In this document: piece by piece, positions 1,417-5,989 of the stretch
Position numbering within the stretch: position 1 is the first letter of the stretch
How the letters are laid out: the number at the start of each line of letters is the position of its first letter
IMG/VR virus record: IMGVR_UViG_2534682173_000012
Length of the DNA: 5,989 nt
Source: a virus
Lineage: Duplodnaviria; Heunggongvirae; Uroviricota; Caudoviricetes
Direction: 5' to 3' (one strand)
Made by a program: the position numbers and the translations under genes
The notes under the pieces: generated by a model
Databases searched by the model: none
Seen by the model: the letters and a program-made list of their open reading frames with translations, nothing else
What the model was told of the DNA's origin: nothing

Positions 1417-1665
1417 TAACACGGAAACACCAGACGGTACGGTTACAGTCACCATCAGCGATGATCATAACTTTGACCGCCAGATTATTATTCCGCCCAT
1501 TATTTTTAACGGTATAGCGTATGACGATCCGGGGAGCGGAAATAACCCAGGAGGCACGCGATACACGGGTTATGGTTTTGAAGTTCGCAAAAACGGCGTA
1601 TTAATCGCGTCCAGAGAAACTAAAGGGGCCATTCCCGGTAGTTACAGTGCAGTTATTGATATGCC

Positions 1666-1855
1666 GAGTGGCAGGGGAAGCGTCACTCTGGAGTTTAAGA
1701 TTTTCCAGAAAGGCAATCAGGGGGCAGGCAATATCACCGACTGTACGGTGATTGTGACCAGAGTGGCAGGGGAAGCGTCACTCTGGAGTTTAAGATTTTC
1801 CAGAAAGGCAATCAGGGGGCAGGCAATATCACCGACTGTACGGTGATTGTGACCA
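1666..1855 (+). repeat. Perfect direct tandem duplication, 2 x 95 bp (1666-1760 and 1761-1855), inside the 3' end of J
   Basis: Both units read gagtggcaggggaagcgtcactctggagtttaagattttccagaaaggcaatcagggggcaggcaatatcaccgactgtacggtgattgtgacca; compared base by base, no mismatch. Flanking bases (c before, a after) do not allow the boundaries to slide. Confidence 0.95.
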
Positions 1856-1907
1856 AAAAAGCCGCTTCCGGCATCAGTATTCGTTGAAATTGTTATAACC
1901 CATATAA

Positions 1908-1935
1908 GGGCGTCAGAAATGACGCCTTTTTTATT
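1908..1935 (+). terminator. Rho-independent terminator downstream of J
   Basis: Stem ggcgtca (1909-1915), loop gaaa, stem tgacgcc (1920-1926), followed by TTTTTT (1927-1932). Confidence 0.7.
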
Positions 1936-1945
1936 GCAGAAAAGC

Positions 1946-1951
1946 GAGAGG
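1946..1951 (+). promoter_or_regulatory. Ribosome-binding site of lom
   Basis: gagagg, 5 nt upstream of ATG 1957. Confidence 0.5.
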
Positions 1952-1956
1952 TAATT

Positions 1957-2556
1957 ATGCGTAAACTTTATGCCGCCATTTTGTCCGCAGCCATTTGTCT
2001 GGCCGTATCCGGTGCGCCTGCATGGGCGTCTGAACATCAGTCCACGCTGAGCGCGGGGTATCTTCATGCCTCGACGAACGTTCCCGGCAGCGATGATCTG
2101 AACGGGATTAACGTGAAATACCGTTATGAGTTTACGGACACACTGGGGATGGTGACGTCATTCAGCTATGCAGGAGACAAGAATCGCCAGCTGACCCGTT
2201 ACAGCGATACCCGCTGGCATGAAGATTCCGTGCGTAACCGCTGGTTCAGCGTGATGGCGGGGCCGTCTGTGCGCGTGAATGAATGGTTCAGCGCGTATGC
2301 GATGGCGGGTGTGGCTTACAGCCGTGTGTCGACTTTCTCCGGGGATTATCTCCGCGTAACTGACAACAAGGGGAAAACGCACGATGTGCTGACCGGAAGT
2401 GATGACGGTCGCCACAGCAACACGTCTCTGGCGTGGGGAGCTGGCGTGCAGTTTAACCCGACCGAATCCGTGGCCATTGATATTGCTTATGAAGGCTCCG
2501 GCAGTGGCGACTGGCGCACTGACGGTTTCATCGTGGGTGTCGGTTATAAGTTCTGA
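1957..2556 (+). CDS. lom: Lom outer-membrane protein (Ail/Lom/OmpX/PagC family 8-stranded beta-barrel), lambda-type moron
   Basis: 199-aa ORF: MRKLYAAILSAAICLAVSGAPAWA (signal peptide, likely cleaved after AWA) ...SEHQSTLSAGYLHAS...GFIVGVGYKF, ending in the aromatic C-terminal residue typical of outer-membrane beta-barrels. Matches my recollection of lambda Lom. Good RBS upstream; position between J and stf as in lambda. Confidence 0.93.
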   Translation: MRKLYAAILSAAICLAVSGAPAWASEHQSTLSAGYLHASTNVPGSDDLNGINVKYRYEFTDTLGMVTSFSYAGDKNRQLTRYSDTRWHEDSVRNRWFSVMAGPSVRVNEWFSAYAMAGVAYSRVSTFSGDYLRVTDNKGKTHDVLTGSDDGRHSNTSLAWGAGVQFNPTESVAIDIAYEGSGSGDWRTDGFIVGVGYKF

Positions 2557-2582
2557 TTAGCCAGGTAACACAGTGTTATGAC

Positions 2583-2610
2583 AGCCCGCCGGTTCAGGCG
2601 GGCTTTTTTG
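2583..2610 (+). terminator. Rho-independent terminator downstream of lom
   Basis: Stem agcccgc (2583-2589), 8-nt loop, stem gcgggct (2598-2604), followed by TTTTTT (2604-2609). Confidence 0.75.
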
Positions 2611-2620
2611 TGGGGTGAAT

Positions 2621-5600
2621 ATGGCAGTAAAGATTTCAGGTGTACTGAAAGACGGCACAGGAAAACCGGTACAGAACTGCACAATCCAGCTGAAAGCAAA
2701 ACGTAACAGCACCACGGTGGTGGTGAACACGCTGGCCTCAGAAAATCCGGATGAAGCCGGGCGTTACAGCATGGACGTTGAGTACGGTCAGTACAGCGTT
2801 ATTCTGTTGGTGGAAGGATTCCCGCCGTCACATGCCGGGACCATCACCGTGTATGAAGATTCTCAACCCGGTACGCTGAATGATTTTCTCGGTGCCATGA
2901 CGGAGGATGATGCCCGTCCGGAGGCACTGCGCCGTTTTGAACTGATGGTGGAAGAGGTGGCGCGTAACGCGTCCGTAGTGGCACAGAACACGGCAGCCGC
3001 GAAGAAGTCAGCCGGCGATGCCGGCACATCTGCCCGTGAGGCGGCAACCCATGCGACTGATGCTGCAGGCTCAGCACGCGCAGCCAGCACGTCAGCCGGA
3101 CAGGCCGCTTCGTCGGCTCAGTCAGCGTCTTCCAGCGCAGGAACGGCATCAACAAAGGCCACTGAAGCCTCAAAAAGTGCTGCCGCTGCAGAGTCCTCAA
3201 AAAGCGCGGCAGCTACCAGTGCCGGTGCGGCGAAAACGTCAGAAACGAATGCTGCAGCGTCACAACAATCAGCAGCCACTTCTGCATCCACCGCGACCAC
3301 GAAAGCGTCAGAAGCTGCCACCTCAGCCCGGGATGCGTCGGCTTCAAAAGAGGCAGCGAAATCATCAGAAACGAACGCATCCTCGAGCGCCAGTAGCGCA
3401 GCTTCCTCGGCAACGGCGGCAGGCAATTCCGCGAAGGCGGCAAAAACGTCCGAGACGAACGCCAGGTCTTCTGAGACGGCAGCGGGACAGAGCGCCTCAG
3501 CTGCGGCAGGCTCAAAAACAGCGGCTGCGTCGTCTGCCAGTGCCGCGTCAACAAGTGCCGGGCAGGCCTCAGCCAGTGCCACCGCCGCCGGAAAATCGGC
3601 AGAAAGTGCTGCATCGTCCGCTTCAACAGCCACAACGAAGGCTGGCGAAGCCGCTGTACAGGCCAGCGCAGCAGCGAGGTCTGCTTCCGCAGCGAAGACA
3701 TCCGAAACGAATGCGAAAGCGTCGGAAACCCGTGCAGAATCCTCAAAAACGGCAGCCGCATCGTCCGCCAGTTCGGCAGCGTCATCGGCATCATCTGCGT
3801 CTGCTTCAAAAGATGAGGCGACCAGACAGGCGTCAGCAGCGAAGGGCAGCGCCACGACGGCATCCACGAAAGCAACAGAGGCGGCAGGCAGTGCGACGGC
3901 GGCATCTCAGAGCAAAACTACTGCTGAATCCGCTGCGACCCGTGCGGAAGCTGCTGCTGATCGTGCTGAAGAGATTGCCGGTGCAGTTGCGATGGAAGAC
4001 GCAAGCCTTACAACTAAAGGTGTTGTGAAACTTAGCAGTGCTGTTGATAGCACCAGTGAATCGCTGGCGGCAACGCCAAAGGCAGTAAAATCAGCCTATG
4101 ACAATGCAGAGAAACGTCTGCAGAAAGACCAGAACGGCGCTGATATACCCGATAAGGGACGCTTCCTGAACAACATTAACGCGGTCAGTAAAACAGACTT
4201 TGCTGATAAGCGTGGTATGCGTTATGTGCGGGTTAACGCTCCTGCAGGTGCAACATCTGGAAAATATTACCCTGTTGTTGTTATGCGTTCTGCTGGCTCA
4301 GTAAGCGAACTGGCATCAAGGGTCATTATCACCACGGCAACGCGACCCGCAGGCGATCCGATGAATAACTGCGAGTTTAACGGATTTGTTATGCCTGGTG
4401 GCTGGACTGACAGGGGGCGTTATGCTTATGGAATGTTCTGGCAATATCAAAACAATGAACGAGCCATCCACTCAATAATGATGAGTAATAAGGGCGATGA
4501 TTTGCGCTCTGTGTTCTATGTTGATGGCGCTGCTTTCCCTGTTTTTGCGTTTATCGAAGATGGCCTGTCAATATCCGCACCTGGTGCTGATCTCGTTGTT
4601 AATGATACGACCTATAAGTTTGGGGCAACAAATCCGGCGACTGAATGTATCGCGGCGGACGTTATCCTTGATTTTAAGAGTGGGCGTGGTTTTTATGAGT
4701 CTCATTCGTTAATCGTTAACGATAACTTGTCGTGCAAAAAACTTTTTGCCACAGACGAAATTGTAGCGCGTGGTGGTAATCAGATTCGAATGATAGGTGG
4801 GGAGTATGGGGCATTATGGCGTAATGATGGCGCTAAAACTTACCTGCTGCTTACCAATCAAGGTGATGTTTATGGTGGCTGGAATACATTAAGACCGTTT
4901 GCTATTGATAACGCAACCGGCGAACTGGTTATTGGAACCAAACTGTCCGCAAGTCTGAACGGTAATGCATTAACAGCAACAAAGCTGCAAACGCCAAGAC
5001 GGGTTTCTGGTGTTGAGTTTGATGGTTCCAAAGATATTACTTTAACCGCCGCGCATGTGGCTGCTTTTGCCAGAAGGGCAACGGATACATATGCCGATGC
5101 GGATGGTGGCGTTCCCTGGAATGCCGAATCAGGCGCTTACAATGTCACCCGCTCTGGCGACAGCTATATTCTGGTTAACTTCTATACCGGAGTCGGAAGT
5201 TGCCGGACCCTGCAGATGAAGGCGCATTACAGAAATGGTGGTCTGTTCTACCGTTCTTCAAGAGATGGCTATGGTTTTGAGGAAGACTGGGCAGAAGTTT
5301 ATACCTCGAAAAATCTTCCACCAGAAAGCTACCCAGTCGGCGCACCAATCCCGTGGCCATCAGATACCGTTCCGTCTGGTTATGCCCTGATGCAGGGGCA
5401 GACTTTTGACAAATCTGCCTACCCGAAACTTGCTGCCGCTTATCCGTCAGGCGTGATCCCTGATTTGCGTGGCTGGACGATTAAGGGCAAGCCCGCCAGT
5501 GGTCGTGCCGTATTGTCTCAGGAACAGGACGGCATAAAATCGCATACCCACAGCGCCAGCGCATCCAGTACGGATTTGGGGACGAAAACCACATCGTCGT

Positions 5601-5989
5601 TTGATTACGGCACTAAATCCACGAATAACACTGGTGCGCATACCCATAGTTTAAGTGGCAGCACGAATGCAGCTGGTAATCACAGCCATAGAGATGGCCG
5701 TCGATTTAACCCCAGTGTTTTTAAAGATACTTATCAATATGGTTATACAAGCTCAGGTCAAAATACCTGGGGTGTACAAGGCTCAGTAGGTATGTCTACG
5801 GGGTGGTTAGCGAATACCAGTACAGATGGTAATCATAGCCATTCACTGTCCGGCACAGCAGCATCTGCAGGTGCACACGCGCATACTGTCGGTATTGGTG
5901 CTCATACGCACTCCGTTGCGATTGGTTCACATGGACACACCATCACCGTTAACGCTGCTGGTAACGCGGAAAACACCGTCAAAAACATC
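2621..5989 (+). CDS. stf: Side tail fibre protein Stf, 3'-partial (no stop before window end; at least 1123 codons)
   Basis: Hand translation of frame 2 from ATG 2621 has no stop through 5989, and the ORF track (which lists only ATG-to-stop ORFs) shows no frame-2 ORF here, consistent with that. N-terminus [62 protein letters not shown] matches the lambdoid Stf N-terminus as I recall it. Later come [20 protein letters not shown], a tail-collar-like segment ([50 protein letters not shown]) and repeated H-x-H motifs. Weak SD (gggg) 5 nt upstream of the ATG. Confidence 0.9.
2990..3990 (+). repeat. GC-rich low-complexity region of stf encoding an Ala/Ser/Thr-rich shaft with degenerate internal repeats
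   Basis: About 330 codons that are almost entirely A/S/T/K/E/G. The motif AAK(T/S)SETNA recurs four times (nt about 3228-3263, 3353-3385, 3431-3470, 3690-3730). Codon periodicity (GCN/TCN/ACN) creates long spurious ORFs in other frames and on the opposite strand. Confidence 0.6.

Follow-up and report, generated by a model that had tools for sequence, protein, structure and literature searches.

A 434-type receptor-binding module in a non-functional copy of a lambdoid J gene on an Escherichia coli draft contig

The 3′ end of the J gene studied here encodes the well-known h434/OmpC-type receptor module, carried in a non-functional copy of the gene. The window, meaning the whole 5,989 nucleotides analysed, is the entire contig AQAV01000028.1 of draft assembly GCA_000358495.2 from E. 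coli P0304816.12, the strain from which protein records ENF33185.1 and ENF33186.1 derive. We are confident that it holds a 434 allele (~1259–1887) on a lambda-like J backbone, in a dead J of a defective prophage, possibly worsened by draft-assembly errors. The module is the classical h434 host-range type and is already known. As written, J is either a pseudogene or the product of misassembly, and because of this no receptor-binding J can be made from it.

The contig runs from the 3′ 1.9 kb of a lambdoid J (the 3′ half of the gene) through a hairpin to lom and stf. The order J-terminator-lom-stf is as seen in lambda, 434 and many E. coli prophages. The features are as follows.

2 to 1120, + strand: J reading frame as written, covering the FNIII/Ig domains and the first part of the tail-tip fibre, ending at a premature TGA (1118–1120)
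1072|1073, + strand: 1-base deletion, a missing G (CATTAT-TCGCGGG), placed by alignment; the first frame-breaking lesion
1259 to 1400, + strand: end of the central straight fibre, where the 434-type tract begins; recognized by its SNP pattern, with lambda still alignable
1400|1401, + strand: junction of a frame-breaking 65-base deletion relative to every intact 434-type J
1401 to 1887, + strand: 434-type (h434) receptor-binding module, Ig_GpJ_C, with one extra repeat unit and the natural stop TGA at 1885–1887
1666 to 1760, + strand: tandem duplication copy 1, 95 bases; the copies are 100% identical, with a period of 95
1761 to 1855, + strand: tandem duplication copy 2, 95 bases (2 mod 3), missing from all relatives
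1906 to 1929, + strand: terminator-like hairpin 3′ of J, AAGGGCGTC AGAAA TGACGCCTTT followed by a T run
1957 to 2556, + strand: lom, encoding an intact Ail/Lom outer-membrane beta-barrel protein of 199 aa
2621 to 5989, + strand: side tail fibre gene of the stfR type, with 1,123 open codons, running off the contig end

Pfam Ig_J, Ig_J_second and Phage_Tail_Tip were matched by the J frame at 2–1120, and the domain order in the DNA (Ig_J, Ig_J_second, Phage_Tail_Tip, Ig_GpJ_C) is collinear with J of lambda and 434. The module thus lies at the J C-terminus, beyond both the FNIII/Ig domains and the tail-tip fibre. The 434 annotation has a terminator at the position equivalent to the hairpin at 1906–1929. 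The hairpin arms read GGGCGTC...GACGCC here vs GGGCACC...GGTGCC in 434, AR_452 and ECO8855; the changes are paired, with the stem kept, and the version present is that of the AR436/W150 frameshifted-J prophage type.

Further downstream, the N-terminal half of stf contains a long Ala/Ser/Thr-rich stretch (2990–3990, GC 59–66%) that gives rise to spurious long ORFs at 3118–3867 (−), 3213–3905 (−) and 3018–4028 (+), some of which the deposited annotation calls as genes. The C-terminal part of stf (5530–5989) carries repeated His-x-His motifs (SHTHS, AHTHS, NHSHS, AHAHT, AHTHS and SHGHT), of a kind that resembles metal-binding tail-fibre tips such as that of T4 gp37. An identification of the contig with the K-12 Rac remnant was considered and rejected, as K-12-type loci have IS5 in lom and no J upstream. 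In the K-12-type Rac locus an IS5-family transposase lies within lom, and an upstream 342-aa tape-measure fragment takes the place of J.

To locate the divergence from lambda, positions 1–2000 were aligned with lambda, 434, lambda h434 imm21 and one E. coli prophage, and identity was calculated per 100-base bin. Nucleotide identity to lambda was 0.86–1.00 per bin over 1–1352, fell to 0.73 over 1353–1400 and was 0.45–0.58 over 1400–1887, so that the lambda-like stretch of J described in the initial annotation (to ~1400) was confirmed up to ~1350. With the lesions repaired, protein identity to lambda was 96.7% for the equivalent of lambda J residues 520–973 and 38.2% for the equivalent of residues 974–1132. 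The divergence of the J 3′ end from lambda is real and sharp. High identity to lambda J residues ~980–1132, named beforehand as the result that would speak against an exchanged domain, was not found; the module shares 36–38% protein identity and 45–58% nucleotide identity with that region and is not of the lambda type.

The closest phages to positions 1–2000 were lambda h434 imm21 (97.1%) and 434 (96.6%), followed by mEp460, several ECOR-derived phages and Stx-converting phages. Nucleotide identity to 434 over 1353–1887 was 0.95–1.00 per 100-column alignment bin with one exception: the bin containing an allele-specific SNP patch, with just 27 aligned bases, gave 0.81. The last 164 residues, once repaired, were 100% identical (164/164) to J of an AR_452 prophage (WP_047656194.1), 99.4% identical to J of an ECO8855 prophage (WP_053273735.1) and 97.6% identical (160/164) to phage 434 J, compared with 38% for lambda J. 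Near-identity to the 434 module and the same indels relative to lambda place the module in the 434 (h434) type. This type is common: at least 1,088 of 5,426 complete E. coli genomes contain both halves of the 434-specific linker region, in a count where two half-matches score like one full match.

The repaired C-terminus scored 93.6 bits on Pfam PF12421 (Ig_GpJ_C; cut-off 26.2) and covered profile positions 1–134 of 135, whilst the ORF at 1343–1846 as written scored 80.2 bits and covered positions 7–108 of 135 only. Against solved lambda gpJ chains the module gave E = 1.8e-31, and against the ‘A8 gpJ’ chain E = 8.8e-40. Judged by sequence comparison, its homology to solved gpJ is unambiguous, and the module is a divergent allele of the Ig-like receptor-binding domain of lambda rather than an unrelated domain. 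The proposal of a mosaic exchange of the J receptor-binding end, with a receptor probably other than LamB, is therefore well supported by the 97.6% identity to 434 J.

Four substitutions (G to R, V to I, H to Q and R to G) separate the allele from that of 434. All fall in the 22-residue stretch MPSGRGSVTLEFKIFQKGNQGA and within MPSGRGSVTLEFKIFQKGNQGAGN, in the arrangement PSG(G>R)GS...K(V>I)F(H>Q)KGNQ(R>G)AGN. The stretch MPSGRGSVTLEFKIFQKGNQGAGN aligns with PAGRGN...TSTRHSADIPPYTFA of lambda. We suspect that these 22 residues form a putative receptor-contact surface, and the four clustered substitutions could change which OmpC variants are recognized. Within the same region, 434-type alleles differ at five of 13 bases in a micro-patch at 1664–1678 (CCGAGTGGCAGGGGA vs CCTAGTGGTGGTGGT). 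Its sole amino-acid effect is the G to R change, the R version being like PAGRGN of lambda, and the patch resembles a very short tract of gene conversion in a loop that probably contacts the receptor.

Base composition did not mark the exchange. The GC content was 63.5% over 1–600, 51.0% over 601–1400, 48.7% for the module minus one repeat unit and 49.3% for the module as written. A significant GC step (p = 4e-6) was found near 650, within the lambda-like part, and a matching step is present in lambda J (0.62 to 0.52) and 434 J (0.63 to 0.51). GC along J is thus not uniform, but the step does not lie at the module, and GC was rejected as a swap marker since lambda and 434 have the same step. 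The initial annotation had taken an AT-richer module as evidence of a swap, using for comparison a line from the GC-rich FNIII/Ig region; its hand count of 38/60 G+C for 481–540 was correct, and its count of 25/60 for 1481–1540 should read 27/60.

The only real contrast is a modest one, between the 434-type module (48.7%) and lambda’s own module (55.8%; p = 0.049), and this is what would favor a recent import of the module from a donor of lower GC that does not belong to the lambdoid/E. coli gene pool. We regard such an import as very improbable, as the module does not differ in GC from the 800 lambda-like bases that precede it (chi-square p = 0.50), the step at ~650 occurs in lambda and 434 too, and the module is widespread among E. 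coli prophages. The GC of the E. coli genome is usually quoted as ~51%, and that of the module is near this figure.

Three lesions break the J reading frame. The 1-base deletion at 1072|1073 is followed by 15 out-of-frame codons and then the stop at 1118–1120. It is certainly real and inherited, as it is matched exactly in six complete genomes (AR436, AR_0374, 3985, MB165, ET300 and W150), the J genes of which RefSeq labels ‘frameshifted’. Lost with the 65-base deletion are 22 codons, MLEATQVRGDFVKAVSKAFPKK, which encode the connection between fibre and receptor-binding domain. Because 1 + 65 = 66, the module is back in the original frame, but the stop at 1118 comes earlier. The 95-base duplication then shifts the frame again, leading to a stop at 1844–1846, and the true C-terminus KKAASGISIR*, with its stop at 1885–1887, lies in the third frame. 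J is consequently not a single ORF; frame 2 has stops at 1118 and 1844, and the J pieces are spread over three frames.

These lesions bear on how the gene had been read. The ‘shorter linker’ of the initial annotation is the frame-breaking 65-base deletion at 1400|1401. Its peptide is exact once one 95-base copy is removed, yet it is not contiguous in the DNA, having been read without regard to the frames. The divergence it observed was therefore confirmed, whilst the GC contrast, the contiguous protein and the shorter linker were not; likewise, its interpretation of an exchanged module stood, the support drawn from GC and from the linker fell away, and the gene as written proved broken.

Programmed frameshifting was ruled out by stops in all frames and by the absence of the lesions from relatives. 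A free-standing receptor-domain ORF was also rejected as a functional product, as it is without the final strand and has a 28-residue out-of-frame tail. The 167-aa ORF at 1343–1846 is not on record, and a promoter scan of 1300–2700 gave no promoter-like site on the + strand.

The inherited 1-base deletion, common to other E. coli, would by itself end translation at 1118–1120. The remaining two lesions were seen in this contig alone, and draft-assembly errors in this repeat-rich region may make J look worse than it is. The 65-base deletion and the duplication might be absent from the real genome, in which case only the 1-base frameshift inactivates J. Neither the 1400|1401 junction nor the duplication junction had a contiguous match in 5,426 complete E. 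coli genomes, in a search that accepted only contiguous 70-base matches. The 1400|1401 junction, the sole junction scanned there, was also absent from a species-representative genome collection. With the exact Lom and an antisense ORF as queries, only long contigs of unrelated strains were returned, none closer than the relatives already compared. Along its length the contig is a patchwork of stretches that match different E. coli prophages:

301 to 600 and 5555 to 5989: 100% identical to the AR436 434-type prophage
701 to 1258 and 1908 to 3007: 100% identical to the AR436 frameshifted-J prophage
3500 to 5989: ECO8855 stfR, with one mismatch

The SNP pattern changes at 1259–1400 from the frameshifted-J prophage type to the 434 type, with exact runs at 635–1268 to the AR436 frameshifted-J prophage and from 1249/1264 onward to AR_452 and 434. 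The contig ends lie inside J and inside stf, at sequences common to many prophages.

Two accounts of the private lesions were weighed. We give even odds that the 65-base deletion and the 95-base duplication are artefacts of a short-read draft assembly in which resident prophages, two or three in number and nearly identical, were mixed; the real genome would then have ordinary J genes with at most the 1-base frameshift. This would explain a whole contig that starts in J and ends in stf at widely shared prophage sequence, and junctions seen in none of the complete genomes. The two junction-spanning ORFs on record come from AQAV01000028.1 alone, although 15 sibling isolates (P0304816.1–.15) are listed, which also points to an artefact. 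Both junctions are blunt, without microhomology; the 65-base deletion sets in precisely at the point where alignment between the 434-type and the other module type is lost, and the repeat unit starts at the first base of the allele-specific SNP patch (GAGTGGCAGGGGA vs TAGTGGTGGTGGT). Against assembly error, natural lambdoid prophages are mosaic at the same scale, so that the patchiness proves nothing by itself. A J already dead from the shared 1-base deletion would be free to gather further lesions, and a perfect tandem duplication is atypical as a de Bruijn-graph error. Taken alone, the patchwork fits natural mosaicism and chimeric short-read assembly about equally.

That all three lesions are real, through stepwise decay of J with the module replaced via a co-resident 434-type prophage before or after inactivation, has a probability a little short of one half. 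The 1-base deletion is the firm starting point for this account. The J C-terminus of the six frameshifted-J genomes appears, by eye from two alignments, to be of the ‘A8’ type; in the two of the six that were compared, AR436 and W150, it is of another type than 434. A later exchange would then be needed to give the combination in this contig. AR436 has a second prophage with an intact 434-type J beside its frameshifted J, and AR436-like strains thus hold both prophage types in one chromosome. Every point that favors an artefact counts against stepwise decay, as does the occurrence of the combination in one draft contig only. The specific order of events in which a frameshifted J gained the 434-type module by recombination and later acquired the 65-base deletion and the 95-base duplication is more tentative, and we lean somewhat against it; if true, the contig would show, in their order of occurrence, the steps by which prophages went on swapping modules in a J gene that was already inactive. 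The conclusion on the module holds whichever origin of the patchwork is true.

The receptor of the module is probably not LamB, and by the precedent of 434 it is probably OmpC. Lambda carrying the 434 J binds OmpC, the receptor of 434, and the gpJ C-terminus sets this specificity (PMC11101478, PMC3509688). The sequence of the h434 allele was obtained from the hybrid OM418627 (PMC9119081), and natural gpJ C-termini grafted on lambda have yielded delivery particles that use OmpC (PMC11338833). By inference from lambda structures (PMC11101478) and lambda h434 genetics, the Ig-like domain of an intact phage would trimerize at the central tail fibre tip, with its four bottom loops entering the extracellular face of the outer-membrane porin (OmpC for 434, LamB for lambda). 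Porin binding may then spread the domain bases, twist the beta-prism fibre above and open the tail tip.

Ever since the lambda h434 hybrids, exchange of the J C-terminal module between lambdoid phages and the accompanying change of receptor, OmpC in place of LamB, have belonged to textbook genetics, and the present case matters little beyond annotation. Lambda particles are nowadays retargeted on purpose by such exchange (PMC11338833). The lesson here is one of data quality, as the protein ‘reconstructed’ by eye conceals three lesions that break the frame, two of them perhaps assembly artefacts. As a draft contig can hide such lesions, prophage receptor predictions should be made only from intact, verified J genes.

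Among known systems, the nearest are phage 434 J (UMO75286.1, OL657226) and lambda h434 imm21 (OM418627). Their J is of the same length class (1,137 aa), with the same indel pattern relative to lambda and the same J-terminator-lom-stf context. Compared with 434, the gene described here has the four clustered substitutions and the three frame-breaking lesions, and the backbone upstream and lom downstream come from another prophage lineage. The J genes of AR_452 (WP_047656194.1) and ECO8855 (WP_053273735.1) are intact 3,414-base ORFs without any of the three lesions, and the ECO8855 434-type J is found at a Rac-like site adjoining uspF/ompN. Lambda gpJ (PDB 8XCJ, 8XCK and 8IYK) belongs to the same Pfam family, Ig_GpJ_C, at the same C-terminal position, and shares with the module the motifs DDHxFDRQ, DMPxGRG and KKxxxGIS; the two have 34–38% identity and five indels, which fall between conserved blocks in the alignment. 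Reported receptors are OmpC for the 434 type and LamB for lambda (PMC11101478, PMC3509688). The ‘A8’ gpJ chimera (PDB 9WCA/9WCB), the best PDB match of the module (E value given above), has a natural prophage C-terminus of the same domain family that retargets lambda to OmpC (PMC11338833). It represents a third allele type, distinct from the 434 type, and does not align at the nucleotide level with the module in the window.
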